From IMG/VR virus record IMGVR_UViG_3300044251_000011, positions 1-57,555 of that record: a stretch of DNA of 57,555 nucleotides; one strand, written 5' to 3'. The notes beneath the pieces are model-generated. The model made no database searches. It had not been told where the DNA came from and saw only the letters and a list, made by a program, of their open reading frames with translations. Made by a program: the position numbers and the translations under genes. The DNA is from a virus. Lineage: Duplodnaviria > Caudoviricetes. Positions 2,123 through 27,465 of this stretch are shown here, in pieces (position 1 is the first letter of the stretch; every line of letters starts with the position of its first letter).

Positions 2123-2125
2123 GGG

Positions 2126-2544: not shown

Positions 2545-2988
2545 TCAGGCGCTCGCGCGCTTGATCGCCACGCCGTACTTGTTGATCGGCTGGCCCTTCT
2601 TGGTCTGGCCCTTGCCCAGGAACTTGAACGCCATCGTGTCGCCCAGCGACGGGTTGGCCTCCTCGATCCCCTTGCGGAGCAGGAAGGCGTAACCGGTCAC
2701 GCGCATCACGCGGGTGTCGTCGCCCTCCTTCACCTCGACCTTGATCACCGGGACCATCGGGTCCTGGCCCGGGAGAGCGAAGTCGGACTTGGCCTGGCCG
2801 ATGCCCACGACCTTGCCCACGATGCCCTCGCCCTTCTCGGTCGGCATCCACGCCTCGGACTCGTCGTCCTCGATGCCGTTCAGGAGGTCGTCGTCCCCGT
2901 TGTCCTCGGTGGCGAACATGCCCTCCAGCTCGGCCTCGGACGCGCCGGTGACCTTGCTGCTCTTGCCGGTGGTGGCGGTGCCAGCCAT
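2545..2988 (-). CDS. Putative OB-fold ssDNA-binding protein
   Basis: Acidic N-terminus, W.P..G..I.G.V..I and GD...KFLGK pattern; lies next to recombination genes. Confidence 0.5.
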   Translation of the reverse strand: MAGTATTGKSSKVTGASEAELEGMFATEDNGDDDLLNGIEDDESEAWMPTEKGEGIVGKVVGIGQAKSDFALPGQDPMVPVIKVEVKEGDDTRVMRVTGYAFLLRKGIEEANPSLGDTMAFKFLGKGQTKKGQPINKYGVAIKRASA

Positions 2989-3218
2989 GTCGATCTCTTT
3001 TCTCTCTTTACGCGCTCAGGGACCTTGTGGCCCTGGCTTGGTACGACCCGTCCGGACCTGGCCTAAGCCTCGTGGCCCGGACGGGCCGAGTGGATTCTGG
3101 AGGGCCACTCCCCCAGGCCGTTAGGTAAGGCCCACACCAAGGTTCGCCCGCGTCACGACTGCTCACCCGGGGGTGGATCGTGTACGACCTGCCGCTTACC
3201 TCGAACTCGTTTCGGTCG

Positions 3219-3291
3219 CGCCCCGCCGTGGACTCGAACCACGGTGTCCCTCATCCGGCAATCTTGGGATGACAACTGCCTATCCAGGGGC
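3219..3291 (-). ncRNA. tRNA-like element (non-canonical) inside a structured ~350-nt leader
   Basis: T arm CGTGG-TTCGAGT-CCACG, acceptor-like GCCCC/GGGGC, TCATCC/GGATGA stem with 10-nt loop, no D stem, 73 nt. Confidence 0.5.
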
Positions 3292-3354
3292 CGCCCGTCT
3301 TTCCGGGCTGTCCAGTGCGCCTCGGCCTTGCGGGCCTCAGCTCTCACAGGTATT

Positions 3355-3383
3355 ACCTTACAGGGTAGACGGCAAAGTGTCTA
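3355..3383 (-). promoter_or_regulatory. Promoter TAGACA-N17-TAAGGT with symmetric operator variant TAGAC-N8-GTCTA
   Basis: Spacing and -10 box match the family; palindrome at 3366-3383. Confidence 0.7.
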
Positions 3384-9199: not shown

Positions 9200-9472
9200 T
9201 CAGCCCGCCACGGACGCCAGATCGGTCCGTGCACCCTGGCCGGGACGGCCTTCCCTCCAGGCGTCCAGCGCGGCGCGCGTGAACACCGGGAGGTTGTACT
9301 GGCCGTCCGCCTCGCGCTCGGGCTCGGCCTCGGGGCCGATGCCGCGCGCCACGTAGCTGGAGAGCGTGTTCCGCTTCAGGCCCAGATACTCGGCGGCCGG
9401 GCCGTAGCCCACGAACCGGTCCTGGCCCTCGGTCTCCTGGCTGTCCACGTTCTCACCTTCTCTCGTCGTCAT
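9200..9472 (-). CDS. AlpA/MerR-like helix-turn-helix DNA-binding protein
   Basis: AAEYLGLKRNTLSSYVARG..P.P, LDAW..RPGQGARTDL; leaderless promoter TTGTCA-N18-TATAGT-N6-ATG (9479-9508). Confidence 0.8.
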   Translation of the reverse strand: MTTREGENVDSQETEGQDRFVGYGPAAEYLGLKRNTLSSYVARGIGPEAEPEREADGQYNLPVFTRAALDAWREGRPGQGARTDLASVAG

Positions 9473-9533
9473 GGTCTGACTATACAGGCACGCCTTCCAG
9501 GCTGACAAGCGGGGAGATTTCTGGCCGCTGGCG

Positions 9534-9562
9534 TTGACACTTCACAGTCAAGCCTGTAAAGT
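9534..9562 (+). promoter_or_regulatory. Promoter/operator TTGACACTTCACAGTCAAGCCTGTAAAGT
   Basis: Family consensus. Confidence 0.85.
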
Positions 9563-9613
9563 AGTTCTCAGCACCGGGGAACACGCCTCGGGCTGAGGCC
9601 CCGGGAGGCCATC

Positions 9614-10087
9614 ATGTTCCAGACCACCGCCACCATCACCGGTTCGACCCTCGTCGTTGTCGAGCGCAACGAGGCGGGCCTGACCACCGCGCTGGTCCTG
9701 GAGGTGGCCCGGCCGGAGAACTTCCGGGCGGCCGAGATCGAGCTGGCGATGGTCGGCCTGGCCGTGGCCTCGGCCTGGGAGCTGGACGGGGACAACATCT
9801 CCGCGCCGGTGCGCAAGCTGGACAACGAGTTCAACGGCGTCCGGGCAGCGAAAATCTGGGCGGCCGTGGGCACCACCCACGAGGAGTTCGAGCTGGCTCC
9901 GGCCTCGACCGTGGAGAACGGCGACATCATCACGGACTCCGAGTTCTCGGACGCCTACGTGGTCGGCGGCTCCTCCACCGAGTGCGGCGTGACCAAGCTG
10001 CACCAGGTGGCCGAGGGCAAGGGCTGGGATGACCGGTACACCGGCGAGTTCTCGGGCCTGGTCCAGGTGGCGCGCCGCAAGGCGTAG
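9614..10087 (+). CDS. Hypothetical protein
   Basis: GGGAGG RBS, promoter upstream, terminator downstream. Confidence 0.75.
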   Translation: MFQTTATITGSTLVVVERNEAGLTTALVLEVARPENFRAAEIELAMVGLAVASAWELDGDNISAPVRKLDNEFNGVRAAKIWAAVGTTHEEFELAPASTVENGDIITDSEFSDAYVVGGSSTECGVTKLHQVAEGKGWDDRYTGEFSGLVQVARRKA

Positions 10088-10731: not shown

Positions 10732-11471
10732 GCACCATTCCTACCTTCCTCCTCACGGAGTCGTCTCGCGGAGCGTACCCGGGACGGTCCCGACCGAAGC
10801 GGTCTACGCCGTGCCAGCATTGGATCAGTAAGGGCCTGGCCGGTCCAATTGATCTCCAGCGCCGAGCCCTCGTGGTGCCGCCGGGCCACCCGCTCCCGGG
10901 CCTTGTGCTTGGTCAGCGAGGGGATCGGGAGGTGGTCCACCAGGGACGGCCACGTGTACCAGACATCGTGGCCGCGCCGCTCGGCCCAGCCCGCCACCCG
11001 CATATCGTCCGGCACCCCGGCGCGCGTCTCGGCGTACTGGATCATGTCCCCGATCAGCTTGACGGGGAGCGCGATACAGACGCCCCACATCAGTTTCTGG
11101 CTCCGGACCCAGGTGGCCCCCGCCGTGTCGGCGGCGCGCGCCATCGCCTCCCAGCGGATCGGCACGTTGCGGCCGGTGCCCAGGTACGGCGAGACCACGG
11201 CGTCCGGCGGGACGAACGTCAGAGCGCGCTCCAGCCCGGCCAGGAGATCGGCGCACGGAACCGCGTCGTCCTGGATCAGGACGTGCCAGTCCGCGTCCGG
11301 GTCGGCCAGCTCCCAGGCCCGGCGCGCGGTCCGCCAGACTCGATCGCCGCTCCCCGAGGGCGGACCCTCGTCGTCCCAGCCGATCGCCACCGGCCGGTCC
11401 AGGGCGGCCATCAGCTCGCGCACCCGGTCCGCCCGGTCCGGGTGCGCCATGATGCTGGCGGAGAGTTTCAC
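10728..11471 (-). CDS. Glycosyltransferase (GT-A fold)
   Basis: IMAHPDR, WHVLIQDDA, DDMR, WPSLVDH. Confidence 0.7.
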   Translation of the reverse strand: MKLSASIMAHPDRADRVRELMAALDRPVAIGWDDEGPPSGSGDRVWRTARRAWELADPDADWHVLIQDDAVPCADLLAGLERALTFVPPDAVVSPYLGTGRNVPIRWEAMARAADTAGATWVRSQKLMWGVCIALPVKLIGDMIQYAETRAGVPDDMRVAGWAERRGHDVWYTWPSLVDHLPIPSLTKHKARERVARRHHEGSALEINWTGQALTDPMLARRRPLRSGPSRVRSARRLREEEGRNGA

Positions 11472-13300
11472 CGGCCGTCCGCGAGGGCCTGGAGGATCAG
11501 GTCCCGCTTGTCCTTGCGGACGCCCAGCACGATCCCCCGGTGCTTGGCGAGCGCCTTCAGCGTCGGGATCGACAGCTCGGAGATCGGCTGGCCCACGGTG
11601 GCCTCGACCACCAGGGCATCGTTCAGCCCGACCCGGGTCAGGTCCCCGTGGTGCCCGTTGCTTGACGTGTCACTGTCAAGCGCGGCGGCCGACTCTCGGA
11701 GAGCGGCCACGCCCTCGGGGTCCACGCGCTCCCACTCGGCCTCCAGCGTCGCCTTGTCCTCCGGCACCTCGGGACCGGCGGCCACCTGGCCGCCCACGGC
11801 CGGGTACGGGGAGGGGTGGACGCCCTCGCTCGTGATGGCGGTCGCCGTGCCGGTCGGCTTCAGCTTGGGCTCCTCGGTCGTCACCAGCCGGGTGACGGCC
11901 AGCCGGTCCGCGTGGATCTCGAACTCCTCCAGGAACCCCTCGGCCACCAGCTCCTCCAGCGCCTCGCGGACGCCGGGCCAGTCCGGGTGGTCCAGGTCGT
12001 CCACGGCGATGGTCGCGCCGGGGGCCAGGTGCGGAGCCCAGACCTCGATGTCCTGGCGCGCGCCCTCCTTGCTGTGGTCGCCGTCCACGAACAGGAGCCC
12101 GACCTGGCGGCCGGACCAGTCGGCGGCCACCTCGTGCGAGAAGGCGTGAACCAGGTCGATCTTGTCCTTGTACCCGAACGAGTCCACCCAGTAGGCGGCC
12201 CAGGTGCGCGAGTCGGCCTCGGTGAACGGCGGGCCGTACGTGTTGCCCGGGGCGTCCCACGCGTCGATGGCGGTCACGTGCGCGCTGTTGCCCAGCCCCG
12301 CACCCCAGGCGAGTTGCAGCGCGGTCCGGCCCTGGAACACGCCGATCTCCACGATCTCCTGGTCCGCCGGGACCTGGATCGCCAGATCGGCCAGGGTCAC
12401 CATCACATCGTCCGGCGTGGCCGCCCGGACGTTCTTGAACTGGATCGGCGGCCGGGGGCTCCGCTTCTCGGCCAGGCGGCGCGAGGTCGGGCCGGAGCGC
12501 TCCACGCGGCGCGGCGCGGAGCCAGCCACGCGCGGCCGGGCGGCCGGGCTCGGGGTGCTCGTCGGTTCGGTCACTTCAGGCCGTCCTCTCCGTAGGTGGC
12601 GGATCTCCGCCACGTCGGTCCGGAACACGTCGCCGTGTCGCCAGCTCTCGTACGCGCGCCGGTCCCGCTTGAACTGGTCCCGGTGGTTCACCCGCTGGTA
12701 CTGGGCGTCGGTCTCAGCCTTGCCCACGATCGGGTGCATGTGCTCCACCCGCACCTCGGGGAGGAAGCGGAGAGCACCGGCCGCGCCGAACATCTCCATG
12801 ATCGAGTTGTCGCAGTACATGTGCTCCACGTCGGCTGGGACCATCCGGCCCAGCGCGGCCACCACGTCCGAGGTCACGGCCCACTCGGTGCTGAGGTTCT
12901 TCCCCTGGTACCCGTCGTCGCTGTAGACCATCCCGCTCCCCAGCTCGCGGAGGACGGTCAGGTACCGCTCGGCCCAGCCGATCGTCCGGGGGAGGTGGTC
13001 GTCACCAGCGAACCCGAGGGCGAACCAGCCAGCGGCCAGCGCGGCGGCGGCCTCGTTCAGCTTGTGGACCATCGGGACGTGGTGGTCCACCTCGTACGTC
13101 TTGATCAGCGCGTCGCCGGTGTCCGGGTGCCGGGTCTCCTCGACCAGGGCCAGGTACCCGGGGTACTCCGGGTCGTCCTTGTCGATGACCAGCACCATGT
13201 CCGCGCGGTCCCAGGCGTTCGTGAAGTCCCAGGCGCTGATCACCTTGCGCACGTTGCCGGGGCGGCCCCGGGTCGGGATCAGGACAGCGAGATCACGCAT
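11468..13300 (-). CDS. GT2-like glycosyltransferase fused to class I SAM methyltransferase, with C-terminal Rho_N/HeH-like helix pair
   Basis: VLIPTRGRP, GDDHLPRT, HMYCDN, VEHMHP; VEIGVFQGRT, LLFVDGDHS, LAPGATIAVDD; SELSIPTLKALAK..GI. Confidence 0.8.
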   Translation of the reverse strand: MRDLAVLIPTRGRPGNVRKVISAWDFTNAWDRADMVLVIDKDDPEYPGYLALVEETRHPDTGDALIKTYEVDHHVPMVHKLNEAAAALAAGWFALGFAGDDHLPRTIGWAERYLTVLRELGSGMVYSDDGYQGKNLSTEWAVTSDVVAALGRMVPADVEHMYCDNSIMEMFGAAGALRFLPEVRVEHMHPIVGKAETDAQYQRVNHRDQFKRDRRAYESWRHGDVFRTDVAEIRHLRRGRPEVTEPTSTPSPAARPRVAGSAPRRVERSGPTSRRLAEKRSPRPPIQFKNVRAATPDDVMVTLADLAIQVPADQEIVEIGVFQGRTALQLAWGAGLGNSAHVTAIDAWDAPGNTYGPPFTEADSRTWAAYWVDSFGYKDKIDLVHAFSHEVAADWSGRQVGLLFVDGDHSKEGARQDIEVWAPHLAPGATIAVDDLDHPDWPGVREALEELVAEGFLEEFEIHADRLAVTRLVTTEEPKLKPTGTATAITSEGVHPSPYPAVGGQVAAGPEVPEDKATLEAEWERVDPEGVAALRESAAALDSDTSSNGHHGDLTRVGLNDALVVEATVGQPISELSIPTLKALAKHRGIVLGVRKDKRDLILQALADGR

Positions 13301-13949
13301 GGGCGCTCCAGGTGAAGTGAGGGCTGGCGAGCGCGGAGCGCTGGCCCGGGGTGATGGCGCGCGGCTTCTGCCAGCGCGTGCCGGTGCTGGTGAACAGGTA
13401 GTGGTACAGGATGTGCGGGATCACCACCTGGGTCTTGAGCACCTGGGCGCGGCGTAGCTGGGCGGCCCAGTTGCGGTCCTCGGCTCCGCCGGAGCGCGTG
13501 CGCGCGAAGTCGGCGCGGAGCGCGAGCTGGCGGCGGATCGGGTTGATGTGCGAGATGTCCCGCTCGTACCGGCCGGTGAGGTTGCGCCATTGGGTGAACT
13601 CCAGCGAGTGGTACGCCACGGCCACCGGCGCGCCGTCCGAGTAGCACTGGACCTGAAACCCCACGTAGTCCGGCTCGGTCTCCAGGGCGGCCACGATGCG
13701 ATCCACGTAGTCCGGGCTCACCAGGTCGTCATCGTCCACGAACGAGACGTAATCCGAGGCGGCCGTCTCCACCATCGTCTGGCGGATCTTGGGGAGGGGT
13801 GGACGCCCGTCATTGTGCCAGCCGACCACGCGCACGCGGCCTGCGTACGGGTCGAGCTGGGGCAGGAGCCCGGCCATCAGCCGCTCGAACAGCGGACGGC
13901 GCTCGCCCAGGGTCGGGACGAGGATCGTCCAAGAAGGCGCGGCTGTCAT
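13293..13949 (-). CDS. GT2-like glycosyltransferase
   Basis: TILVPTL, YVSFVDDDD, AEDRNW, LYHY. Confidence 0.82.
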   Translation of the reverse strand: MTAAPSWTILVPTLGERRPLFERLMAGLLPQLDPYAGRVRVVGWHNDGRPPLPKIRQTMVETAASDYVSFVDDDDLVSPDYVDRIVAALETEPDYVGFQVQCYSDGAPVAVAYHSLEFTQWRNLTGRYERDISHINPIRRQLALRADFARTRSGGAEDRNWAAQLRRAQVLKTQVVIPHILYHYLFTSTGTRWQKPRAITPGQRSALASPHFTWSAHA

Positions 13950-14495: not shown

Positions 14496-15176
14496 CTACA
14501 GGGGATAGACCGCGATCTGTCGCCGGTTGAAGCTGGCCGCGTTGCTCGCGTTGCTGGTGGCGAAAGTCAGACACGCGTTGTAGCTCGCGCCCGGGGTGAG
14601 GCCGCTCAGTAGGCCGCTGATGTTGAGCGAGCCCTGGCCCCCCGCTGTGGACGAGAGGTGCACGGCCGCCGTGTTGTTGTTGGCCGTCCGGAACAGCGTG
14701 CCCGAGCCGATGGTGGAGCCGTTGCGGACCTCCCAGTCCAGTTGCGCATAGAACCCCACGGTGGCGTTGCCACCAGCCGAGCGACCGATCACCTGGATCT
14801 TGCCGGACGGCGGCGCGATGAACGCCACGCCGTGGATACCGGTGGTCGTCAAGCTGTTGACGTAGGCCGTGCTCGTCGTGGTCCCGTTCGTGACCGAGCC
14901 GGTGGCCTCCACCGGCTGAGCACTGGCCGCGTTAGAGCCGCCCAGGATCAACAGAGAGCCGCGATAGCTGAGCACCTGGACCACGGAACCCACGGCGAAC
15001 ACAGCGCCGCCCAGGGCGTTGACACCGGGCACGTCCACCCCGGAGAGGTTCAGCGTCACCGTGCCGTCCGTGCCGATGGCGGTCACCGTGCCCACGCGGA
15101 GCTGGAGACCGGGGTCTCCCCCGACCTGGCTCTCCGGGTTGAGCTTGTTCCGCAACTTGGTGTAGTCGATCATCAC
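14496..15176 (-). CDS. Minor tail protein
   Basis: OB-like N-terminus (LRVGTVTAI..GSVVQVL..LLILG), beta-rich C-terminus, tail operon. Confidence 0.7.
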   Translation of the reverse strand: MMIDYTKLRNKLNPESQVGGDPGLQLRVGTVTAIGTDGTVTLNLSGVDVPGVNALGGAVFAVGSVVQVLSYRGSLLILGGSNAASAQPVEATGSVTNGTTTSTAYVNSLTTTGIHGVAFIAPPSGKIQVIGRSAGGNATVGFYAQLDWEVRNGSTIGSGTLFRTANNNTAAVHLSSTAGGQGSLNISGLLSGLTPGASYNACLTFATSNASNAASFNRRQIAVYPL

Positions 15177-16246
15177 AGCTCCCGGACCTGGAGGGTCGTG
15201 TCACCGGCGAGGTCCAGCGTCACGGCATCGACCACCAGCGTGGCACCTCCCACGGCCACCACGTCCCCGGCCGTGATCGTCGGGTCATACGGGCGGACCA
15301 GGGTGTACGTCGCACCAGCACCGACGTTCTTAGCCAGGATGGTGTTCGCGGCGGACTGAGCCTGGCCCACGGTCAGCAACAGCGGGGAGGAGTAGAACTC
15401 GGTCACCCGGCCGTACGGCGAGGTGCCGGGGCCGGTGCCCGCGTAGGTCGGGCTTGACGGGTCACTGTCAATCGCCACGGCCTGGACCGGCGTCACGCCC
15501 TCCTGGCTCTCGCCGCGCGCCACGATCACGTTCGGGGGCCGCGTGTCGTAGTCGGCGGAGAGCGAGGTCAGGAGGTCCAGCGAGTAGGCGCTGGCCGGGT
15601 CCGGCGTGATCGAGCCGACCTGGATGTCCCCGGTCCGGTCGTACCAGGCGACGCGCGAGAACCCGTTCAGCACGTCCAGGAGTTCCGACCACGGGGCCGT
15701 CCCGGTGTCCAGCCCGAAGATCCGGGCCGCGCCCAGCGAGGAGCCCACGAGCGGGACGGCCGGGTTGATGCCGGTCCGGTTCGTGATCACCGTGTTGATC
15801 ATGTTGCCGAGGTCGGTCCCGCTCGGGACGGTCAAGGGCGTCTCGAACCGGTACCGCTCCACGTTGTCCGAGATGTCGATCAGGCCGACCTCCACGGTCC
15901 GCTGATCGGCCTCGATCCGGGTCCGGCTGGACGCGATCTCGTACGTCCCGTATGGCACCGTTGACACTGAACCGTCAAGGAGTTCTAGGCCCAGCTCCAC
16001 CACCAGCCGGGTACCGAACGGGGTCAGGATGTCGCCCGGTCGCGTGGGGAGGAGGGCATCGCCAGCGAACGCCAGGCGGCCGTCCCACCGGCCGTTCCGG
16101 CGCGCGTCCTGGGTGAAGGAGCCGGACACCGGCTCCAGCTCCACGGTCTGGCCGCCGCGCGAGAAGGTGAACCGCGAGAAGCGCCGATACCCCGTGGGGG
16201 TAGCGAGGGCGGCCTGGTGCCTGGCCGAGGCAAACCGGGTGCTCAC
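15173..16246 (-). CDS. Minor tail / baseplate hub-like protein
   Basis: LTPFGTRL, PNVIVARGE, SPYGRVTEFYSSPLL, DPTITAGDVV. Confidence 0.75.
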   Translation of the reverse strand: MSTRFASARHQAALATPTGYRRFSRFTFSRGGQTVELEPVSGSFTQDARRNGRWDGRLAFAGDALLPTRPGDILTPFGTRLVVELGLELLDGSVSTVPYGTYEIASSRTRIEADQRTVEVGLIDISDNVERYRFETPLTVPSGTDLGNMINTVITNRTGINPAVPLVGSSLGAARIFGLDTGTAPWSELLDVLNGFSRVAWYDRTGDIQVGSITPDPASAYSLDLLTSLSADYDTRPPNVIVARGESQEGVTPVQAVAIDSDPSSPTYAGTGPGTSPYGRVTEFYSSPLLLTVGQAQSAANTILAKNVGAGATYTLVRPYDPTITAGDVVAVGGATLVVDAVTLDLAGDTTLQVREL

Positions 16247-19053
16247 AGGAAGTCCTCCGGGTCGGGGGTGTCCGGCCAGGGCTGGCGGACCATCGTCACC
16301 TGGACCACCTTGGTATTCGCCACCGGGGCGCGGACGGTCCAGCCCGCCGGGGCATACCAGCCCGGCGTCCCGCCGACCGGCGAGAAGTACACCCGGTCGT
16401 TCGCCAGCATGGCCTCCAGCCGGTTGATCGCCGGGAGGCCCACGGCCGCGATGGTCAGCGTCATGTCCTCCCCGGCCAGCGTGGTGGAGACCGAGTGGAG
16501 CCCGCCGTACAGCGGGGTGTTGTCGGTGACCAGCCGGGGGAAGTCGTGCGACCGGTCGGTGGTCACGGCCATCCGGTCGGTCATCGAAGAGAGCCGGTCC
16601 AGCCCATCGTTGTACGTGAAGCTGGGCACGGTGGCGCTGGCGAAGTCCGACACCTTCAGCTCGGGCACCGGGAGCGGGCCGCCGGAGATCGTGCCGTCCA
16701 GCCGGACGAAGTGCACCTCCTTGTAGACGGGGAGGTGAGCGGCGGAGCCGGTGGTCTGAGCGCCGGTGGTCCCAACCCCGGGAGACGCGCTCGCCGTGGA
16801 GCCGCCCGAGTGGTCGTGGCTGGTCGTGGGCGAGTCGCCCAGGTCACCGAACGAGGGGGCCTCGAACGAGCCCGTGGTGGACGCGAGAACGTCGATCGTG
16901 TGGCTGTGGTTGCCGATGTCGTGGCTGTGGCTCGGGGTCGTGTGCGTGTGCGAGCTGGAGCCGCCGGTGGAGTTGATCGAGTCCGGGCCCCGGTCCCGCG
17001 CGAACCAGGTCCGCATGTCCGGCGTGCCACCGGCTCCGTTGCACAAGGTCAGGAGCGGGTCGAGCGCGGCCGTGTCCCCGACGTACAGGCCGATGATCCG
17101 GGTCTGGGTTCCCCCGCCGGTGTTGCGCAGCACCTGCAAGCGCCGGTTCGGCGGCTCCAGGTTGACCGCGTTCGTGTTGCCAGGGCTGACCGAGTTCGTG
17201 TTCCCCGTGCTGGCGCTGGCGATGTTGAGCGGGTGCGTGTGCCGGGGGAGCCAGCGCGGGGTGGAGGAGCCGGTACCCGCCTCCTGGCTGGAGCTGGGGT
17301 TCGAGAGCCCGGTGGCCCCGATCGAGTGGTCGTGGCTCACCCCGTTGTGGCTGTGCGCCGCAACCGAGTGCGTGTGCGTGGCCGCGCCGGAGTTCGTTCC
17401 GCCGTTCCCGGCCGCCGGAGCGCCCTTCAGGTAGCGGCCCGCGCTGTCCGCGTCGTTGGTCCAGCCGGACACGCTCTCGGTGGCGAACCCCAGAATGCCG
17501 GTCGCGTAGTTGGCTTGCGCGCCGTCGCTCTTGATCCAGATGACGGTCCGGGCCGGGGGGTCGTTGTTGGTCGTGCTGGTCCCCGGCGTCGCGCTGGAGG
17601 TGTTGTACGGACCGGCCGAGCCGGAGCCGGACGGCCGCGTGTGCGTGTGCGGCTGGTCGGCCTGGGGCTGGCTCGCGCCGTTGAACCGCGCGCTGGTGGT
17701 CGAGCTGTTGCTGGAGCCGGTGGAGCCCCCGATCGAGTGGCTGTGCGCCGCGATCGAGTGCGCGTGCGAGGGCACCGTGTGCGAGTGGCTGGCCGCTCCC
17801 CCGGTGACGCCGGTCGGCACGCCGGTCCCGCTCGATCCGCGCGGGTAGAACCCGTCCAGCGCGGTCACGCGGGACCAGCCGGACGGGATGCTCCCGGCCG
17901 TTCCCGGCCAGCCCAGGATCATGTCCGCCGGGATCGTGTCGGGCAGCTCCACGAACGTCGAGACGTAACCCTGGTACCGGACCCGGTACGTGATGTCGCA
18001 CGGCTCGGCTGACACTTCACAGTCAACGCCAGGCTGAGGGTCGAGCTGGGGAATCGCCAGGTCCAGGTACGAACCGCTGAGCGCGTCGGCCACCACCGCG
18101 ATCCGCTGGGAGCCGGTGCAATCGTCGCGCCAGACCTCGGCCACCACGTAATCGTTGTCCCACGCCTGGCCGCCCGGGTAGGTCCAGGAGACCCGGTACC
18201 CGCCGAACTCCGGCGTGACCGTGACCAGGGGAGGGGAGGGCGGGGGGACCGTGTTCTGGACGTTGAACGCCAGGGTCTCGGCATACTCGAACGGGTCCGC
18301 TCCCCGGATGGTCGAGCGCACCACGAACGCGGCCGTGTATGCCCCGTCGTCCAGGCCGTTGTCCACGCCGATCTCGGAGGGCGGCGCGCCGGAGCCGCTG
18401 GCCGAGAACACCGTGGCGGCCAGCGCGTCCTTGACCGTGATCGACCAGTTGAGCGCGGGGAGCCCGTCGTACGAGACCGGCCCGAAGTACATCACCGGCT
18501 GGTTCGTGTCGGTGACCGTGCCGCCGGTCTGGTCGTCGCCCGCGTTGTCCTGGACCTCGGGCGAGTAGTCCGGCCGGAACCGGCAGTCCACGTCCACGTA
18601 GCACTCGGCCGTACGGGTCTCGGTGGCGGTCACCATGTCCTCGGTCCAGCCACCCCCGATGTTCAGGTCGGAGAGCGCGCCTACCGTGGCGAGGCCGAAC
18701 GAGACAAGCTGGGTCCAGGGCGTCACCTGGTCCGCGAACACGGCCGTGACCGGGACGGTCTGATAGATGATGTAGTCCGAGGTCCCCCGGCCCAGGTCGA
18801 TGTCCTCGTTAGCCGTCCCGGCGTCGGTCCGGATGCGGATGCGGCCACGCACCTGGTGACGCTGGTACCCGGCGGCCGGGGTGTGCGGCTCCACCCGGAG
18901 ATTCCAGTTGTTGCCGGAGTCCACCGCATTGAAGTCGATGTATGTGGCGTCGGAGTTGTCCGAGGTCACAGCGGCCAGCGTCCCCGAGGGCACAGCCGTA
19001 CCCGCTCCGACCTCGCGTACCGAGACCGGCCGGAGAACGTTGGTTACCGCCAC
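16243..19053 (-). CDS. Large minor tail protein with three collar + HxH-rich repeats
   Basis: Three IP.G..W..GW / PDM motifs, each followed by four HxH; paralog of 19086..22493. Confidence 0.8.
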   Translation of the reverse strand: MAVTNVLRPVSVREVGAGTAVPSGTLAAVTSDNSDATYIDFNAVDSGNNWNLRVEPHTPAAGYQRHQVRGRIRIRTDAGTANEDIDLGRGTSDYIIYQTVPVTAVFADQVTPWTQLVSFGLATVGALSDLNIGGGWTEDMVTATETRTAECYVDVDCRFRPDYSPEVQDNAGDDQTGGTVTDTNQPVMYFGPVSYDGLPALNWSITVKDALAATVFSASGSGAPPSEIGVDNGLDDGAYTAAFVVRSTIRGADPFEYAETLAFNVQNTVPPPSPPLVTVTPEFGGYRVSWTYPGGQAWDNDYVVAEVWRDDCTGSQRIAVVADALSGSYLDLAIPQLDPQPGVDCEVSAEPCDITYRVRYQGYVSTFVELPDTIPADMILGWPGTAGSIPSGWSRVTALDGFYPRGSSGTGVPTGVTGGAASHSHTVPSHAHSIAAHSHSIGGSTGSSNSSTTSARFNGASQPQADQPHTHTRPSGSGSAGPYNTSSATPGTSTTNNDPPARTVIWIKSDGAQANYATGILGFATESVSGWTNDADSAGRYLKGAPAAGNGGTNSGAATHTHSVAAHSHNGVSHDHSIGATGLSNPSSSQEAGTGSSTPRWLPRHTHPLNIASASTGNTNSVSPGNTNAVNLEPPNRRLQVLRNTGGGTQTRIIGLYVGDTAALDPLLTLCNGAGGTPDMRTWFARDRGPDSINSTGGSSSHTHTTPSHSHDIGNHSHTIDVLASTTGSFEAPSFGDLGDSPTTSHDHSGGSTASASPGVGTTGAQTTGSAAHLPVYKEVHFVRLDGTISGGPLPVPELKVSDFASATVPSFTYNDGLDRLSSMTDRMAVTTDRSHDFPRLVTDNTPLYGGLHSVSTTLAGEDMTLTIAAVGLPAINRLEAMLANDRVYFSPVGGTPGWYAPAGWTVRAPVANTKVVQVTMVRQPWPDTPDPEDFL

Positions 19054-19085
19054 GATGCCCCCTCATTCCGAATCATGGTGACAGC

Positions 19086-22000
19086 TCATACTCCCACGTC
19101 GGCCAGTTGGGGAGCGGGCTCGGGGCCGGTGCCGATGAACTTGGCCGTGACCTGGCGGATACGGCCCACCTTGACGATCCGGACCGACTCGGCCACCGGG
19201 GCTGCCCATACCTCGTCCGCGTCGCTCGGGCTGATCAGGACCAGCGGCCGGGACAGCACCGCGTGGAGCGCGGCCAGGTCGGCCTCGTTCTCCACGGCCG
19301 CCGTCATGCTGAGGTTCCGGCCGCCCGGCTCCGCGCTGGTCACGAACCGCGAGCCCATCACGCCGTTGGCGGCCGTGAACGGCCGGTCCCGGTCCCACTC
19401 GAACCGGCCCAGCACCGCGACCCACATCGGGCCGTTCGGCCCCGTGGTGCGGATCAGGTGCTCGGCGTCGGACCAGTCCAGGCAGAACGTCTCGGGGTCC
19501 GGCGGAGGAGTCGGCTCGGCGGTCATCTGGATGAACGCCACCTCCTCGTACGGGGGCTCGGTGGTCGCGTTCGCCAAGGTGCCCGAGGTCGAACTGGCGA
19601 CCGTGGGCGTGGTGCTGTCCGAGTTCGTGGAGGAGTGCGTGTGCGTGCCGGTCGCCACGGTCACGGTGTTGGTCGTGCTGATGTTCGCCGTGGGCGCGGC
19701 GGCCGACCCGATCGCCGTGACGTGCGCGTGGCCGGTCGTCGTGTGGGTGTGCGTCGGGCTGGTGTGGCTGTGCGGGTTGAGCGAGCCGCCAGCCGTCCCG
19801 ATGCTCGCGGTTGCCCCCTTGGGGTACCGGCCGATCAGGTCCGGCGTCCCGGCGGTCCCGTCGCACAGCGCCCAGTTGTCCGGGATCGAGCCGAGCGAGC
19901 CGCGCCAGGCACAGATGATCCCCACGGGGAGGTCCGGCGCGCCGCTGGTGTTCTCCTTCACGCGGAGGTTCCGGTACGGCGGCTCGTCCGGGGTCGTGGT
20001 GCCCGAGTTGCCGGAGCCGCCGCTGGTGAGCGCCGTCGTGCTGGCCGCCGTGACGGCCACCGGGTGCGAGTGCGAGCCGGTCCACAGCGCCGGGTTGGCA
20101 CCGGCGAACAGGCTCTTGTTCGAGACCACCGAGCTGGTGGCCGGGCTCGTGTGCGTGTGGCTGGTGCCGGTGTGGTCGTGCGCGCCGATCGTGTGCGCGT
20201 GAGAGGCCAGCGCGCTGGCGGCCGTCGCTCCCCCGTTCCCGGCGGCGGCGGCCCCCTTGAAGAAGCGGCTGGCCGCGTTCGCGTAGTCGGTCCAGCCTGA
20301 CAGTGAAATGTCAGGAGCGATGACCAGCGCGCCGTCCGGGATGCCGAGGGGCGTCCCGTCCGACTCCATGTAGATCACGTCCAGGCGGGCCGGGTCGTTC
20401 GCGCCGGTGCCGATCGCCGGGGTGTTCGCGCCCGAGACCACGGTGGCGGAGTTGAGCGAGTTCCGGGTGTGCGTGTGGCTGGACAGAATCGCCGTGGTGC
20501 CGGTCGCGCCGTCCGTGCTGACCTGGGTACCCACGGCCGCGCCGCTCGCGCCGGTCATCGTGTGGACGTGGCTCGTGTCGTGGGTGTGGCTCGGCACGGT
20601 GTGCGTGTGGGTGGCCGCGCCGCCGGTCGCCCCGGGCTGGGTCGCGCTGGTCGCCACGCCCTTGGCGTACTTGCCGTCCAGCTCGGTGGTCCGGTCCCAG
20701 CCGTCCGGGATCGAGGCGTTCGTGTCCGGCCACAGGACGATGATCCCGGCCGGGATACCTGGGTCGTAGGTGTCGGACCAGTCCGAGATCCGGAGGTCGC
20801 CGTCCTCGCGGCCGATGGTGCGCGCCCGATAGTACGAACAGCACGGCTCCGGCGCGTGGTCGCACGTGAGGCCGACCCCGGACCGGGGGAGCGTGAAGTC
20901 TACGTACGAGGCGCACTCGTCGGACTCCAGCGGGCCGAGCATCGCCACGGTCACCGTGGAGGTGGGCGAGTAGATGCTGGCCGGACTGTGGACCGTCCAG
21001 GTGTTCGCCTGGCCGTCCTCGAACGAGGTCGTCCCGGAGAGGTGGCCGGAGAAGTCAGGCGACACGATCAGCGGGCCGTCGATGCCGTTGCGGACCTGGA
21101 CCGAGTAGATCCGGCCGGTCCACCGGTTCAGCGGCGTGGGGGTCATGTACGCGCCCACGACGTAGGCGGCCGTGGAGTTGAACAGGGGAGCGGGAGCGCC
21201 GCCCACCAGCGCCTCCCCGATGGCGGCCCAGGCGCTGTCCTCGGTCTCGCGGCTGGCGAACTCCACGCGCCACGCGCCGCCGGAGTCGCTGATCATCCGG
21301 GCTCGCACCTCGGCGTTGCCGAACGGGTCCACCGGGACCAGGACCGTGGAGGTGGCGAACTCCAGCGTGGACGTGCCGTCCGTGCTCCAGCCCAGGATCA
21401 GGCGGCCGTCCTCCTGGAGCGCCAGCCGCCACGCGCGCTGGTTGCCAGCGGTCAGGTAGTGGCTCGCCAGGGTCTCCTCCTGGGTCGGGAGCCAGCCATC
21501 GTCCCGGCCCGCCTTGACCACCACGTCCAGGTCCACCGGCGGGGTACCGCTCGGGGTCGGGGTGTCCGCGTAGGAATCGCCGGTGCCGACCAGCGAGAGG
21601 TATCCGCCCACCGGGCAGTCCACCCGCTGGATCTCGATCCAGCCGACCGAGCCGTCCAGCTCCTCCACGTACGGGGCGCACGCCTCGATCTCGTAGAACG
21701 GCGTGCCGTCCACCACGTCCACCGTGGGGTTGTCGGGCTTGGCTACCGCGCCCACCTGGAGGGTGAACGCCAGCGTCTCCTCGTCCGAGGGGTACGCCGT
21801 GTTCTGGCCGAGCGTGCTCCAGACCTGGAAGTGGGCCACATACGCGCCGTTGTCCAGCGGGGTGGTCTGGCGGTTGATCGCCGTACCCGAGACCACGCCG
21901 GTGTCCCAGACGATCCCGCCATTGAGCGTGACCCAGTACCGGTACTGGCGCGCGTTCAGGTCGTCCAGGTCGATCGAGGCGGCCCGGAGAACCGGCTGGG

Positions 22001-22493
22001 TCGTGTCGCTGATCGTGGTCGTGACGGTGCCGGAGCCGTCCAGGATCTGAGGCGTGAAGGTGGGAGCCTCGCGGCTGTCCACGTCCAGGTACAGCTCCTC
22101 GATCTTGACGCCGGTGGACTGGCCGGTCACATACGTGTAGAGCACGGTGGAGCCGTCCGGCGGCGCGCCGAATCCCCAGGAGCCGGTGACCGTGCTCGGG
22201 GAGGTAGGGAACTGAGCCGCCGCACCGGCGGCCAGCGCGCCCGAGCCGAGGCGGACAGCCCACCAGGCGTCCCCGTCCTCGCCGCGCGCCCGGAGCCGGA
22301 CCTGGTGCCGCCGCTCGCCCACCGGCGGAGAGTCCACCGGCGTGGCGAGGATCAGCGGCGAGCCGGAGCCGCCCCAGGTCGCGTACGTCGCATCGGAGTT
22401 GTCCGACGTGACGCCGTGGAGCGTGCCCGTGCTCGGCGTCCAGCCGACCCCCGAGGAGGTCGAGCTGGGGCGGAGCGTGGTGATCGTGCCCAT
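19086..22493 (-). CDS. Large minor tail protein with LamG-like insert and three collar + HxH-rich repeats
   Basis: Follows tape measure; LPVGIICAW..IPDNWALCDGTAGTPDL collar motif; GNQRAWRL..WTGRIYSVQVRNGIDG. Confidence 0.8.
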   Translation of the reverse strand: MGTITTLRPSSTSSGVGWTPSTGTLHGVTSDNSDATYATWGGSGSPLILATPVDSPPVGERRHQVRLRARGEDGDAWWAVRLGSGALAAGAAAQFPTSPSTVTGSWGFGAPPDGSTVLYTYVTGQSTGVKIEELYLDVDSREAPTFTPQILDGSGTVTTTISDTTQPVLRAASIDLDDLNARQYRYWVTLNGGIVWDTGVVSGTAINRQTTPLDNGAYVAHFQVWSTLGQNTAYPSDEETLAFTLQVGAVAKPDNPTVDVVDGTPFYEIEACAPYVEELDGSVGWIEIQRVDCPVGGYLSLVGTGDSYADTPTPSGTPPVDLDVVVKAGRDDGWLPTQEETLASHYLTAGNQRAWRLALQEDGRLILGWSTDGTSTLEFATSTVLVPVDPFGNAEVRARMISDSGGAWRVEFASRETEDSAWAAIGEALVGGAPAPLFNSTAAYVVGAYMTPTPLNRWTGRIYSVQVRNGIDGPLIVSPDFSGHLSGTTSFEDGQANTWTVHSPASIYSPTSTVTVAMLGPLESDECASYVDFTLPRSGVGLTCDHAPEPCCSYYRARTIGREDGDLRISDWSDTYDPGIPAGIIVLWPDTNASIPDGWDRTTELDGKYAKGVATSATQPGATGGAATHTHTVPSHTHDTSHVHTMTGASGAAVGTQVSTDGATGTTAILSSHTHTRNSLNSATVVSGANTPAIGTGANDPARLDVIYMESDGTPLGIPDGALVIAPDISLSGWTDYANAASRFFKGAAAAGNGGATAASALASHAHTIGAHDHTGTSHTHTSPATSSVVSNKSLFAGANPALWTGSHSHPVAVTAASTTALTSGGSGNSGTTTPDEPPYRNLRVKENTSGAPDLPVGIICAWRGSLGSIPDNWALCDGTAGTPDLIGRYPKGATASIGTAGGSLNPHSHTSPTHTHTTTGHAHVTAIGSAAAPTANISTTNTVTVATGTHTHSSTNSDSTTPTVASSTSGTLANATTEPPYEEVAFIQMTAEPTPPPDPETFCLDWSDAEHLIRTTGPNGPMWVAVLGRFEWDRDRPFTAANGVMGSRFVTSAEPGGRNLSMTAAVENEADLAALHAVLSRPLVLISPSDADEVWAAPVAESVRIVKVGRIRQVTAKFIGTGPEPAPQLADVGV

Positions 22494-22509: not shown

Positions 22510-25443
22510 TCATCGCACCAAGGTAGCTTGCGCCAGGCGCTCCAGGACAGCCTCGGCGGCTTCCTCGCCAGCCTGGCGGCCCTGACCCTGGACCACGATG
22601 GCCCCGGCCTGGATGGTCACCAGGACGTTGGGCTGAGCGGCGCTCGCGCCGTCCCCGCCCCGTACCGGCCGCGAGCTGGTGGCCGCCGTGGTGGTGAAGG
22701 TGGGAAGGTCCCCGGTCAGGTCGGCCAGTTGCTTCTTGATCGAGCCGAACTCGGCCGCCATGCCGGTGCCGAACCCGGCGATGACCATCCGGCCGGAGTC
22801 CTCCAGGATCTTCTTGTCAACCTCGGCCGGACCCTTCCAGTCGGGGAGCATGGAAGTCAGCGAGCCCAGGAGCGACTTCACCCGGCCGAACCCAGCCTGG
22901 ATGCCGGAGATCAGGCCGTTGATGATCTGGCGGCCAGCGTTGACCAGCCAGCTACCCGCCCCCGCGAGCGCGCCCGTGACCGTGGAGCGGATCGAGGAGA
23001 TGGCGGACCGGACAGTCCCGATCGCTCCCCGGATGGCACCGACCAGCCCACTGATCAGCGAGCGCCCGGCACCGACCAGCCAGGAGGCCGCGCTGGCCGC
23101 CGCGCTGATGATGGCCGAGCGGACAGCGCCGATGGCCGAGCGGGCCGCGCCTACGCCGTTGCTGATGATCGACGCGATGAACCCGGCCATGAGCCGGGCA
23201 CCGGCCGCGATCAGCGAGCCCAGGATGGACAAGATCCCGGAGAGGATCGCCCCGTTGATCTGGGCAATCGCCCGGATGATTCCCGGGAGGTTCTGAATAA
23301 ACGCCTTGATCAGCGCCAGCATCAGCGTAGTGGCGGCGGCCTGGAGCGCCGGAGCGTTATCGCTCAGCGTCTGGACCAGCGTCGGGATAAGCGTGTTCGA
23401 GATAAAGCCGATGATCAGGTTAATGTTCTGGACCATCGCATTGACGATGGTCACGATCATATTCACACCGGCCTGAATGATGCCGGGGTTGTTCTGGAAA
23501 AACGCCGTGATCTGGGGGATCAGCGTCCCCGTGATGAACGTCGTCAACAGCCCGATGTTGTTGGACCAGGCGGTCAGCAGCGACTCGAATACCTTGATGC
23601 CAGCCTGGAGGAATTGCGGGTTGTCCTGGAACAGCTTGGTGATAGCCGGGATGATCTGGGTCGTGACCACATTCACAATGGTCCCGATGTTGTTTACCCA
23701 GCCCTGCATGAATTGCTCGATCGCCTTCAGACCCTGTTCCATCAGGGCCGGACCCTGGGTCTGGAGCGTGTTCAGCAAGGTCGGGATGACCTGGGTCTGA
23801 ATCGCGGTCACCAGCTTGGGAAGCGCGTTTCCGATCCCCTGGACGATCGCCACCAGGAGGTTGGTCCCGAGGAGCAGGAGCTGAGGGACGGCCGTGATCA
23901 GAGCGCTGATGATCTTGGGCACGGCCTGGATCAACGCGGTGTAGAGCGAGGGCAGCGCGCCCAGGACGCCCTCGATCAGGCCCTGGACCAGGCGCAACCC
24001 AGCGTCGATGATGATCGGGATCAGGCCGATGATGCCGGTCACCAGCGTGGTGATGATGTTGACCACGGCGGGGAGGAGGACCGGGAGCGCCTTCACGATC
24101 CCGTCCACCAGGCCGTTGATCAGCGCACCGGCGGCCGTGACCAGCTTGGGCGCGCTCGCCACCAGCGTGTTGACCAGCCCGGTCACCAGCGAGACAACGC
24201 CCTGGATGATCTGGGGGATGATCGTCGGGAGCGCGTCGGCCAGGCCCTCGACCATTTTCAGAATGGCGTCCTGGACCTGAGCCCGGAAAGCGATGATCTT
24301 CTGAATGATGGTCGGGAGGTTGGCGGCCAGGTACTGGATTCCCTGGGTGATCAGGTTCTGGAGAGCCGTGGTCGCCCAGTCGAACACCTCGCCCCAGGAA
24401 TCGAACCCGGTCACGAAATTGCGAATGGCGACGTACGTCCGGGCGGACCATCCGATGAACTCGCCCAGCTTGCTGATCAGGAACTGGATACCGTCGAAGA
24501 AGTCACCGAAGAACACGGCCAGCTCGGGACTGGCCGCCGCGATGTTGTCGAACATATTGCGGAGCGCGCCGCCGGTCTCAGAGAGCCCGGTGGCGAATGC
24601 CTGGAGAATGGGGCCGCTGTGCTCCACCAGGTTGACGAACCCGGGGAGTGCGTTCTCCACGAGGCCGATCAGTCCGGCGGTCAGCGGCGCGATAGCCGGG
24701 GCCAGCGCCGAGAACATCGCCTTGAGCTGAGGCGCGATCCGACCGGCCAGCTTCTCGAACTCGCCCAGCGCCTTGACCAGCGGAGCGAGGAGCGGCTGGG
24801 CGGCGGCCGTGAACTCCTTCTTGACGGAATCCATCAGCGACTTGGCCGCCGACTTCAGCGCTGGCTCCTCCTTCAGGAGCATCACGCCGAGGCCGAGCGC
24901 GCCGAGGCCCACGCCGGTGGCGATGGCCGCGCCGAGCAAGGAGCCGATGGCGGCGGCCAGCGCCGTGGCGATGACCCCCGCCATACCGATCCCCAGCGCC
25001 ACCAGCGGCACCGTGAGGAGCGGGAGCACCGCGCCCAGGCCCGGCACCAGGGCACCGGCGAACAGCTTCACAGCGGACTTGCCAGCGTCCAGGAACGCGG
25101 AGCCGAACGTCCGGCTGATCCGGTTCTTATCGACGCCCTTGTCCACGCCCTTGGAGAACTCGCGCCCGGCGGCCTGGCCGCCAGCGGCACCGGCCCGGCG
25201 GCCCTCGGCCACGAACCGGCCGTTGAGGTCGCGGAGCTTGCCGTCCGCTCCCCGGACTACGCCGTCCCCGATGTTCTCCCCGGCCTGCTCGCCGGAGCGC
25301 CGCGCCGCGTCCTGGTCCACATCGACCTTGACCGGATCGACTCGCATCCTTGACAGTGCACGGTCAAGGTCCCGTTCGGTCTGACGGGCGAAGTTGCGTA
25401 CGTCGCCCGTGACCTCTACGCGGGCCGACCCGACATCTGTCAC
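22510..25443 (-). CDS. Tape measure protein
   Basis: 977 aa, amphipathic Ala/Ile/Leu repeats, LRDLNGRFV, LPDWKGP. Confidence 0.9.
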   Translation of the reverse strand: MTDVGSARVEVTGDVRNFARQTERDLDRALSRMRVDPVKVDVDQDAARRSGEQAGENIGDGVVRGADGKLRDLNGRFVAEGRRAGAAGGQAAGREFSKGVDKGVDKNRISRTFGSAFLDAGKSAVKLFAGALVPGLGAVLPLLTVPLVALGIGMAGVIATALAAAIGSLLGAAIATGVGLGALGLGVMLLKEEPALKSAAKSLMDSVKKEFTAAAQPLLAPLVKALGEFEKLAGRIAPQLKAMFSALAPAIAPLTAGLIGLVENALPGFVNLVEHSGPILQAFATGLSETGGALRNMFDNIAAASPELAVFFGDFFDGIQFLISKLGEFIGWSARTYVAIRNFVTGFDSWGEVFDWATTALQNLITQGIQYLAANLPTIIQKIIAFRAQVQDAILKMVEGLADALPTIIPQIIQGVVSLVTGLVNTLVASAPKLVTAAGALINGLVDGIVKALPVLLPAVVNIITTLVTGIIGLIPIIIDAGLRLVQGLIEGVLGALPSLYTALIQAVPKIISALITAVPQLLLLGTNLLVAIVQGIGNALPKLVTAIQTQVIPTLLNTLQTQGPALMEQGLKAIEQFMQGWVNNIGTIVNVVTTQIIPAITKLFQDNPQFLQAGIKVFESLLTAWSNNIGLLTTFITGTLIPQITAFFQNNPGIIQAGVNMIVTIVNAMVQNINLIIGFISNTLIPTLVQTLSDNAPALQAAATTLMLALIKAFIQNLPGIIRAIAQINGAILSGILSILGSLIAAGARLMAGFIASIISNGVGAARSAIGAVRSAIISAAASAASWLVGAGRSLISGLVGAIRGAIGTVRSAISSIRSTVTGALAGAGSWLVNAGRQIINGLISGIQAGFGRVKSLLGSLTSMLPDWKGPAEVDKKILEDSGRMVIAGFGTGMAAEFGSIKKQLADLTGDLPTFTTTAATSSRPVRGGDGASAAQPNVLVTIQAGAIVVQGQGRQAGEEAAEAVLERLAQATLVR

Positions 25444-26479: not shown

Positions 26480-26600
26480 CGGTGCTCACCTTCTCCTGGT
26501 GACGCTTCTCGCGCCGGATCTTCTCGGCCAGCGCCAGCCGGGCCTTGCGGAATCGCCGGGACAGCGCGCGGTCCTGAGTGCGGCGGCCCCGGCTGTTCAC
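26469..26600 (-). CDS. Small basic hypothetical protein (43 aa)
   Basis: GTGA coupling to upstream gene; fills operon gap. Confidence 0.45.
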   Translation of the reverse strand: MNSRGRRTQDRALSRRFRKARLALAEKIRREKRHQEKVSTGGG

Positions 26601-27115
26601 TCGCGGGTCCACTCCAGGAGCCGGTCCACCGTGGCGGCCGGGGCCGCGCCGTCCCACTTGGGCGCGTGCTCTAGTTCGATCACCCCGGCGAAGTCGCCCC
26701 AGTGCGCCAGCTTGTAGTGATACGTGATCGTGCCCGTGGGGAGGTTGATCCCCACGATGAAATAGCCGCCCTCGAACATCGGGCTGTCCTCGGGGTGGTG
26801 CGCCTTGCTCCGCCAGGCGTCCAGGCTCAGCGCCTTGCACAGCCCGGCGGTCAGCGCGCGCCGGTGGTCGTACAGCTCCCCGAACGTGTGGTACCCGTCC
26901 GTGATCTCGTCCGAGCCCCCGGGCAGCGCCCGGAGGGTCTGGCCCAGGAGAGCGCGGATCGTGCCGGTCTCGTGGCCCGAGGCCACCCGGAGGTTCAGCG
27001 GCTCGATCGACGTGGCGACCACGAACGCGTACGGCATCCCGTGAGCGAACGTCTCCAGGACCCGGCCCTCCGCGTCGTCCGGGTCGGCCTGGGTCTCGGT
27101 GTAGTCGGCGGTCAT
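26597..27115 (-). CDS. WDGH-type domain protein
   Basis: DGYHTFGELYDHR, WRSKAH, MFEGGYFIVGI..PTGTITYHY, APKWDG. Confidence 0.7.
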   Translation of the reverse strand: MTADYTETQADPDDAEGRVLETFAHGMPYAFVVATSIEPLNLRVASGHETGTIRALLGQTLRALPGGSDEITDGYHTFGELYDHRRALTAGLCKALSLDAWRSKAHHPEDSPMFEGGYFIVGINLPTGTITYHYKLAHWGDFAGVIELEHAPKWDGAAPAATVDRLLEWTRE

Positions 27116-27465
27116 CCTCGCTCCGCCTCGAACAGCGGGGGGTTGACCACGGTCTTGGGCCGGGGCACCGAACCGGCGCGCCCCTGCTCGGACCGGATGC
27201 CCGCGCGGACGGCCCAGTCCTTGGCGTCCACGAGGCGGGTCAGCGCGTGGGTCAGGTCGGCGCTGTCCTTGATCGTGGTCACCAGCTCCACGGCGGTCTG
27301 GTAGATCGGCCGCGAGTAGTTCTGGAGGTTCGTGGGGAGGTGGGAAAAGGCGAGCCACTGAAGCGCGTCCTTCACGGCCGGGTGGCGGCCCTCACCGATG
27401 CTCGCCGCGTGCTCCGGCGTACCCAGCACGGTGGCCGGGTCCGGGGTGCGTCCGACCGGCATCAT
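27112..27465 (-). CDS. Small helical-hairpin phage protein
   Basis: FSHLPTNLQNYSRP..ALTRLVDAKDWAVRA. Confidence 0.7.
   Translation of the reverse strand: MMPVGRTPDPATVLGTPEHAASIGEGRHPAVKDALQWLAFSHLPTNLQNYSRPIYQTAVELVTTIKDSADLTHALTRLVDAKDWAVRAGIRSEQGRAGSVPRPKTVVNPPLFEAERG

Follow-up and report, generated by a model that had tools for sequence, protein, structure and literature searches.

The tips of T4 gp12 (1ocy) and gp37 (2xgf) are built from a collar segment, an HxH-bearing insert (x, any residue) and a closing strand back to the collar, with one such unit per chain and three identical chains per tip. In gp12, zinc is held by His445 and His447. In the crystal structure of gp37, seven iron ions are described as being held by HxH motifs (PMC11705849), and iron is likewise reported in crystal structures of HxH spike tips (PMC11821841). 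C24 of a Bizionia prophage (6ov6) is described as a receptor-binding fibre tip (PMC11821841). Phage fibres are modelled as trimers by default, as described for RBPseg (PMC12143355). Much closer to the proteins considered here are Pas28 and Pas29 of Actinoplanes phage phiAsp2 (NC_005885). In GenBank, Pas29 is annotated "possible receptor recognizing protein; contains HXHY motifs", and the phiAsp2 record makes no mention of three repeats or of a single-chain trimer. The present analysis concerns two paralogous tail proteins, P0001 and P0002, encoded in IMG/VR virus record IMGVR_UViG_3300044251_000011; the window, that is, the whole stretch of DNA that was analysed, comprises a complete phage genome of 57,555 bases and has direct terminal repeats. 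Pas28 and Pas29 are the direct counterparts of the two proteins, with the same 3 x (3+1) HxH layout and the same predicted fold, and the window is 81.6% identical to phiAsp2 DNA over positions 16243-22493, both genes included.

Each of the two proteins carries three tandem units (residues 580-991 of P0001 and 374-787 of P0002), which are proposed to fold together within one chain as a pseudo-trimer, or intramolecular trimer. A probability of roughly 65% is assigned to this reading because of an AlphaFold2 (AF2) model, its agreement with BFVD models, unit counts of 3, 6 or 9 among relatives, a census of closed frames, and the occurrence of stand-alone three-unit proteins. The genes and their units are as follows.

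19086..22493, minus strand: gene for P0001, 1135 amino acids (aa); first tail protein after the tape-measure gene; counterpart of Pas28
20346..20759, minus strand: P0001 unit 1, residues 579-716; HxH at 629, 636, 642, 673
19935..20345, minus strand: P0001 unit 2, residues 717-853; HxH at 765, 772, 779, 808
19515..19934, minus strand: P0001 unit 3, residues 854-993; HxH at 908, 915, 922, 951; LCDGTAGTPD motif
16243..19053, minus strand: gene for P0002, 936 aa; second tail protein; counterpart of Pas29
17518..17937, minus strand: P0002 unit 1, residues 373-512; HxH at 423, 430, 437, 469
17110..17517, minus strand: P0002 unit 2, residues 513-648; HxH at 560, 567, 574, 605
16684..17109, minus strand: P0002 unit 3, residues 649-790; HxH at 702, 709, 716, 746; LCNGAGGTPD motif

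A preliminary description of this DNA had noted three tandem repeats of about 135 aa in both proteins, each with three closely spaced HxH motifs and a fourth one further on. Both points hold: the units are about 138 aa each, and every one of them has the 3+1 layout, giving exactly 12 HxH per region. Spacing inside the triplets is 7/7 residues, once 7/6, and the fourth HxH follows about 30 residues on. By chance a mean of 1.3-1.6 and a maximum of 7 HxH would be expected (10,000 shuffles per region) against the 12 observed, and nearly all histidines of the regions lie inside these motifs (24/24 in P0001, 24/26 in P0002). The six units are mutually alignable, with local scores 4.5-25 standard deviations over shuffles. 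The best-scoring pairs between the two proteins are unit 1 with unit 1, 2 with 2 and 3 with 3, and therefore the triplication predates the gene duplication. The collar-like motifs that had been ascribed to every repeat are real but tied to particular units: IP.G....W......P.GW is found in unit 1 of P0001 only and with 7 spacer residues instead of 6 (IP.G....W.......P.GW), and LCDG.AGTPD, in the wider form LC(D/N)G.(A/G)GTPD, is restricted to unit 3 of each protein. The closing (D/E)PP is present in four of the six units and missing from the other two.

Judged from profile searches, the unit is a remote, shortened homologue of the canonical "collar + HxH" unit of fibre tips of the T4 gp12/gp37 type, because a hidden Markov model (HMM) of the six window units matches frames that are clear members of Pfam PF07484, the Phage Tail Collar Domain. 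These are single-unit IMG/VR frames in which the whole unit is covered (i-E-values 6.6e-17 to 1.1e-5), and four of the six tested (L039, L040, L061, L072) score 55-88 bits with PF07484, for which the gathering cut-off is 24 bits. One of them, L072 (245 aa), is a single-unit collar protein with the same 3+1 HxH layout. Among solved structures no sequence matches were obtained with the whole of P0002 or with the six-unit profile (up to E 1 and E 10). When a model of P0002 residues 370-790 was compared by fold, VIA-align Z scores (VIA Z) were 4.8 for 6ov6 (Bizionia prophage C24), 4.6 for 9nxk (Pa223 tail fibre), 3.8 for 2xgf (T4 gp37 tip), 3.8 for 8on5 (Photorhabdus injection-system fibre) and 3.7 for 1ocy (T4 gp12). 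The phage-derived top matches are single chains of trimeric tips, all of them weak; a single chain taken out of an intertwined trimer is poorly suited to comparison with a model of 421 residues.

The preliminary description had proposed that the monomer be folded with AlphaFold. AF2 was run on P0002 residues 370-790 (421 aa) with an alignment of 79 diverse relatives, and it yielded a compact, confident fold of all three units with a mean predicted local distance difference test score (pLDDT) of 85.2 and a predicted template modelling score (pTM) of 0.78; the five models ranged from 80.3 to 85.2 in pLDDT. The inter-unit linkers of 9-11 residues are ordered and confident, and low confidence is seen only in the variable loops of the units. 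Secondary structure assigned with DSSP places short strands and helical turns at the opening of each unit and 9-residue closing strands at model positions 132-140, 267-275 and 408-416. BFVD models, which were made independently, agree with it: the template modelling (TM) score is 0.90 over all 421 residues for Pas29 and 0.80 for Pas28 (36% identity). A protomer needing two partner chains usually models poorly by itself. Since pTM reaches 0.78 with ordered linkers, and three independent domains of about 140 residues would score lower, the units appear to hold a fixed mutual arrangement. The geometry of the known unit also bears on how they could be arranged. The gp37 collar is described as residues 811-860 plus 1016-1026 (PMC12724248), so both ends of a unit of this type meet at the collar, and with linkers of only 9-11 residues the units fit side by side round one axis, coaxial stacking being awkward.

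The number of units per protein follows a rule of three. A HMMER search with the 421-aa region against 1.84 billion representatives (clusters at 50% identity) returned 928 representatives with E <= 0.001, of which 193 have E <= 1e-30. Units were counted with a single-unit HMM in the best 150 of the 928, which are mutually no more than 50% identical: 143 have three units, three have six and one has nine. The remaining cases are one apparent four-unit protein, in which the HMM had split a single unit, and two fragment-like two-unit proteins of 300 and 246 aa; none of these 150 relatives has 5, 7 or 8 units. In multi-module relatives, whole modules of one protein share 39-67% identity, and therefore duplication went by threes. 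Fifty-four of the 150 are only 400-470 aa long, with little beyond the module. At the other end of the size range, the metagenomic module proteins P0126 (2022 aa), P0128 (1978 aa), P0131 (979 aa), P0134 (1574 aa) and P0208 (4157 aa) contain nine or six units as whole three-unit modules or, in the 4157-aa giant, one module.

A census that does not favour three units was made in IMG/VR with a degenerate DNA pattern for the triple HxH. Among the 80 frames examined, 10 have one unit (8 of them closed) and 14 have three (13 closed); the three frames with two units all run off the end of the locus, and in one of these, L082, the units lie far apart. No frame has 4 or 5 units and no closed frame has 2. 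A count of 1 or 3 but never 2 in closed frames matches what is predicted if three units are required per assembly. In some further frames of this sampling (L035 at 9290-9769, L047, L100 and L112), HxH heptads follow one another over long stretches, a single frame containing up to 18 overlapping triple-HxH windows; these frames give no full-unit match to the repeat HMM and may belong to a separate class of phage proteins with histidine-heptad arrays. In the phiAsp2-like group, three units are found in 54 unit-bearing frames from 31 loci, and five frames with fewer units are cut by the end of the locus or lie next to a frame change. Within this group, L009, L014 and L015 have a single repeat-bearing gene though about 8 kilobases upstream are present, and their Pas28-like gene seems to have a different HxH module or none. 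In L032, the repeat-bearing gene (1673-4432) is split over two overlapping frames of 442 and 553 aa, for which a frameshift or a sequencing error in the contig is a possible cause. A tblastn search against 50,697 phage records found phiAsp2 only, although the BLAST low-complexity filter may hide others, and two single-protein queries found no module relatives in species-representative genomes.

Several points weigh against a trimer within one chain. Every solved relative is a homotrimer, and the monomeric state of the proteins in the virion is something that we infer. PF07484 stays below its cut-off on P0001 (11.3 bits, E 0.34, unit 3 only) and does not match P0002; with the units scanned singly, unit 3 of P0001 reaches 15.4 bits and the other five give no match. 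The weak fold matches to solved tips are mixed with unrelated structures at Z 3.8-4.6, namely 3h4z (a fusion of MBP with Der p 7), 1ewf (BPI) and 9hae (Der f 7), and Foldseek gave no E-value better than 0.06. Both the pseudo-threefold packing and the way in which the histidines would line up are deduced from the scores and secondary structure of the model. AlphaFold may fold tandem oligomeric units as a pseudo-oligomer, since intra- and inter-chain couplings look alike. In the sampling, the 150 relatives had been ranked with a three-unit query, which would put proteins of one or two units far down the list; the census covered 80 loci out of at least 117 matching stretches; and 53 of its 80 frames contain no full unit, being other histidine arrays or too-distant relatives. 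Long frames such as L082 and L098 carry non-adjacent units, and hence spaced single units do occur in long fibres. Finally, correlated loss of histidines, which is taken up below, is limited to one six-protein clade and thus to a single evolutionary event, and it gives a hint only.

The alternative that survives best is that P0001 and P0002 form ordinary homotrimers, in which same-numbered units of three chains pair, so that three HxH nodes with 12 metal sites per trimer are strung along a fibre and the compact monomer is an artefact. This would bring them into line with all solved relatives found (T4 gp12, gp37, Bizionia C24 and the Pa223 fibre) and with the spaced single units of L082 and L098, and AlphaFold can indeed confuse inter-chain with inter-repeat contacts. 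It gives, however, no reason why units should come only in 3, 6 or 9, nor why closed frames should contain 1 or 3 but never 2. Stacking on one axis is hard to reconcile with unit ends that both lie at the collar and linkers of 9-11 residues, the unit identities are position-specific, and the flanking CBM-like, FN3 and Ig-like domains are of monomeric types with no trimerising coiled coil or beta-helix seen. Homotrimers are therefore considered unlikely. Less likely again is an arrangement like beads on a string, in which the three 7-spaced HxH of each unit wrap one metal ion with six histidines from a 17-residue stretch and no trimer-like assembly exists. The arithmetic is attractive, because three HxH at this spacing supply exactly six histidines per unit, but the fourth HxH is left without partners, pTM 0.78 and the ordered linkers mean a fixed arrangement of the units, and a rule of three is unexpected for independent domains. 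Moreover, single-unit collar proteins bear 3, 4 or 5 consecutive HxH heptads, as would be expected if each heptad made one layer rather than if the motifs worked in sets of three. A milder form, in which a pseudo-trimeric fold might have some metal sites inside single units, is counted here under the single-chain trimer. Least probable of all is that the histidines bind no metal and instead make up a core, hydrogen-bonded or sensitive to pH, in a beta-rich domain of any symmetry: HxH by itself is no proof of metal binding, but metal is seen in the homologous tips of gp37 (seven iron ions; PMC11705849) and of HxH spikes (iron; PMC11821841), and the residues that replace the histidines include Asn (26/154) and Cys (5/154), both possible metal ligands.

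The intramolecular trimer put forward in the preliminary description is thus partly supported, by computation and not by experiment, in that the three units act as a single entity of folding and of evolution in the monomer model, the BFVD models, the unit counts, the closed frames of the census and the stand-alone modules. On this reading, each of the paralogous tail proteins would carry a module of about 415 aa for receptor binding, in which three diverged "collar + HxH" units follow one another in tandem and would pack round a pseudo-threefold axis to give a whole trimer-like tip in a single polypeptide. The 24 histidines would form up to four layers of three HxH each, holding Zn or Fe and stiffening the module, and the variable stretches, above all those after the fourth HxH, would provide three non-equivalent surface loops touching the host. 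Because no partner chains would be needed, the module could be joined in series with beta-sandwich domains of monomeric kinds (CBM-like, FN3, Ig, lectin-like), duplicated as a whole to 3, 6 or 9 units, or used alone as a tail protein of 420 aa.

Comparison across the family illustrates which parts of such a module are constant. In 154 modules from parent proteins no more than 50% identical, each of the 24 histidine columns contains His in 126-154 modules. Losses are unit-specific, as at the first site of unit 2, where His is replaced by Asn in 26 of the 154. In the six-protein clade mentioned above (P0161, P0182, P0189, P0215, P0223 and P0247), the second layer has become HxP in unit 1 and CxP in unit 3 and stays HxH in unit 2, which may make a His3Cys site in place of His6 if the layer is shared between units. 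Metal binding by the module histidines is probable by analogy with the homologues. The three unit positions are, by their sequences, not interchangeable across the family: unit 1 has C[DN]G in 1/154 modules, unit 2 in 30/154 and unit 3 in 132/154. Raw identity was tried for assigning units to positions and was unreliable for unit 3, of which 86/153 copies are nearest to unit 1 of P0002; C[DN]G is therefore the better position marker. The asymmetry that the preliminary description ascribed to the tip would, in space, follow from the differing unit sequences. Across 117 orthologues of P0002, identity to the window residue is lowest in the stretches after the fourth HxH of units 1 and 3 (0.48 and 0.50), and it is high (0.82-0.88) in the loop that links the third HxH to the fourth.

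The module is flanked in both proteins by further domains, which are listed here.

18580..19053, minus strand: CBM-like jelly roll at the N-terminus of P0002, residues 1-158; AF2 pLDDT 90.5
17959..18576, minus strand: two FN3/Ig-like beta-sandwich domains of P0002, residues 160-365; VIA Z up to 10.0 to FN3, common fold only
19089..19514, minus strand: C-terminal domain of P0001, about 142 aa; homologous to the P0002 C-terminus (blastp)
16246..16683, minus strand: C-terminal domain of P0002, about 146 aa

The N-terminal jelly roll of P0002 matches CBM32, CBM36, CBM4 and GH78 N-terminal domains with VIA Z 9.3-9.8, as a common fold only. For the C-terminal domain common to P0001 and P0002, there was no family match; that of P0002 gave best scores of 0.78-0.79 to unnamed viral clusters in the ESM Atlas, with no lead, and a three-copy complex prediction for it scored 0.00 with the partner fold itself uncertain, which is uninformative on oligomerisation. 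NCBIfam gave nothing usable for P0001, P0002, their C-termini or two downstream proteins. Relatives carry the module in fusion with Ig-like, CBM_4_9 and Laminin_G_3 domains; P0128 bears CBM_4_9, and P0150 has a lectin-like Laminin_G_3 domain upstream of the module. Domains of the CBM-like, FN3 and Ig kinds are monomeric building blocks, and neither a coiled coil nor a beta-helix that could trimerise the chain was seen in the flanking domains of P0002 and its relatives. The label of tail needle used in the preliminary description is not established, as a string of CBM-like and FN3 domains resembles an adhesin mounted on the side of the tail more than a needle at its centre. Likewise, with regard to its suggestion that the fibre hangs from a non-trimeric tail ring, neither Dit nor any other ring-forming family is among the Pfam, PHROG and NCBIfam matches of P0001 and P0002, and when the family alignment was compared by hhalign with one Dit (L034), the probability was 0.3%.

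A receptor-binding role of both proteins is supported by several kinds of annotation and gene order. First, their genes follow the tape-measure gene, they contain CBM-like and FN3 domains, and they match tail-fibre PHROGs. Second, the GenBank note on Pas29 points the same way. Third, an unrelated siphophage contig of low guanine-plus-cytosine (GC) content (36-39%) has, in order, a tape measure protein, Dit, a 421-aa protein, a 142-aa fibre-like protein, a 424-aa three-unit protein and an endolysin, so that this stand-alone three-unit protein is the last tail gene ahead of the endolysin. The neighbours of the two genes in the window are these.

22510..25443, minus strand: tape-measure protein gene, immediately upstream of P0001; matches 15 PHROG families, best phrog_5493 at 1e-77
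15173..16246, minus strand: gene for a 357-aa tail protein, immediately downstream of P0002; phrog_1887 "tail protein", 4e-44

Eleven of the 15 PHROG families matched by the tape-measure gene are labelled tail length tape measure protein. The 357-aa protein also matches Pfam DUF5047 at 7e-7 and, weakly, Phage-tail_3, and is possibly a hub or tip piece. P0002 aligns over residues 1-936 with positions 1-968 of the 968-position profile phrog_5795 "tail protein" (1413.6 bits, E = 0), and P0001 matches the same profile over residues 579-1107 (E 7e-57); residues 852-982 of P0001 match phrog_1800 "tail collar fiber protein" at 8e-8. By blastp between the two, P0001 and P0002 are paralogous across their N-termini, repeats and C-termini. 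An extra segment of P0001, residues 291-507 (window 21000-21620), is absent from P0002 and matches phrog_5313 (unknown function) at 2e-22. About 550 bases downstream of the tail genes, at window positions 11468-13949 on the minus strand, lie genes for a 218-aa glycosyltransferase and a 610-aa protein that matches a DNA methyltransferase PHROG and also a glycosyltransferase PHROG; as a speculation, the Ser/Thr-rich loops of the HxH modules could be targets of glycosylation. Upstream of the tape-measure gene, positions 26597-27358 (minus strand) encode a 253-aa protein with a WDGH domain (Pfam PF25311, 6.5e-34).

Fibre tips are treated as obligate homotrimers in prediction and engineering, and a single-chain version would be an exception of practical use. 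It would offer a monomeric, probably very stable, metal-stapled binding scaffold with three faces that can be evolved or engineered separately. There is also an annotation gap, in that a frequent module has no Pfam name and no sequence relative among solved structures. More broadly, a large unnamed class of phage receptor-binding domains may rebuild the metal-stapled trimeric tip in one polypeptide, with three different faces, mounting as a monomer anywhere on the tail, duplication as a cassette (3, 6, 9), stand-alone use as a 420-aa protein and very different hosts (70% and 37% GC); the chances for and against this wider claim are judged even.

When set beside known systems, the module is nearest to that of phiAsp2; the two systems differ in the stretch upstream of the repeats, where Pas28 has about 155 aa more than its window counterpart. 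With T4 gp12 and gp37 it probably shares the architecture of the unit and, as proposed here by analogy, metal held by the HxH of three strands; it differs in that the T4 tips are homotrimers, whereas the window proteins have three diverged units per chain, and in that CDG...PDL is lost from the collar of units 1 and 2. A single chain also imitates a threefold assembly and holds metal in PAAR and similar proteins of pseudo-threefold build, which sit on trimeric spikes. The likeness to PAAR is in principle only, since fold and role are unrelated and no sequence or structural match was found. In the literature, no description of a single-chain or pseudo-trimeric collar/HxH domain was found, coverage of subscription journals being incomplete. 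Single-unit PF07484 proteins (L039, L061, L072 and C24 in 6ov6) have one unit per chain and a full-length collar, and they are presumably homotrimers. The gp37-like tail of virophage DSLV2 is described as having three different collar-type subunits and an asymmetric trimer-like tip; its subunits are separate gene products of 196-247 aa, whereas the window units are fused and have four HxH each (PMC12724248). Single-unit homotrimers, the three-gene virophage heterotrimer and the present module would make a clean series from oligomer to single chain.

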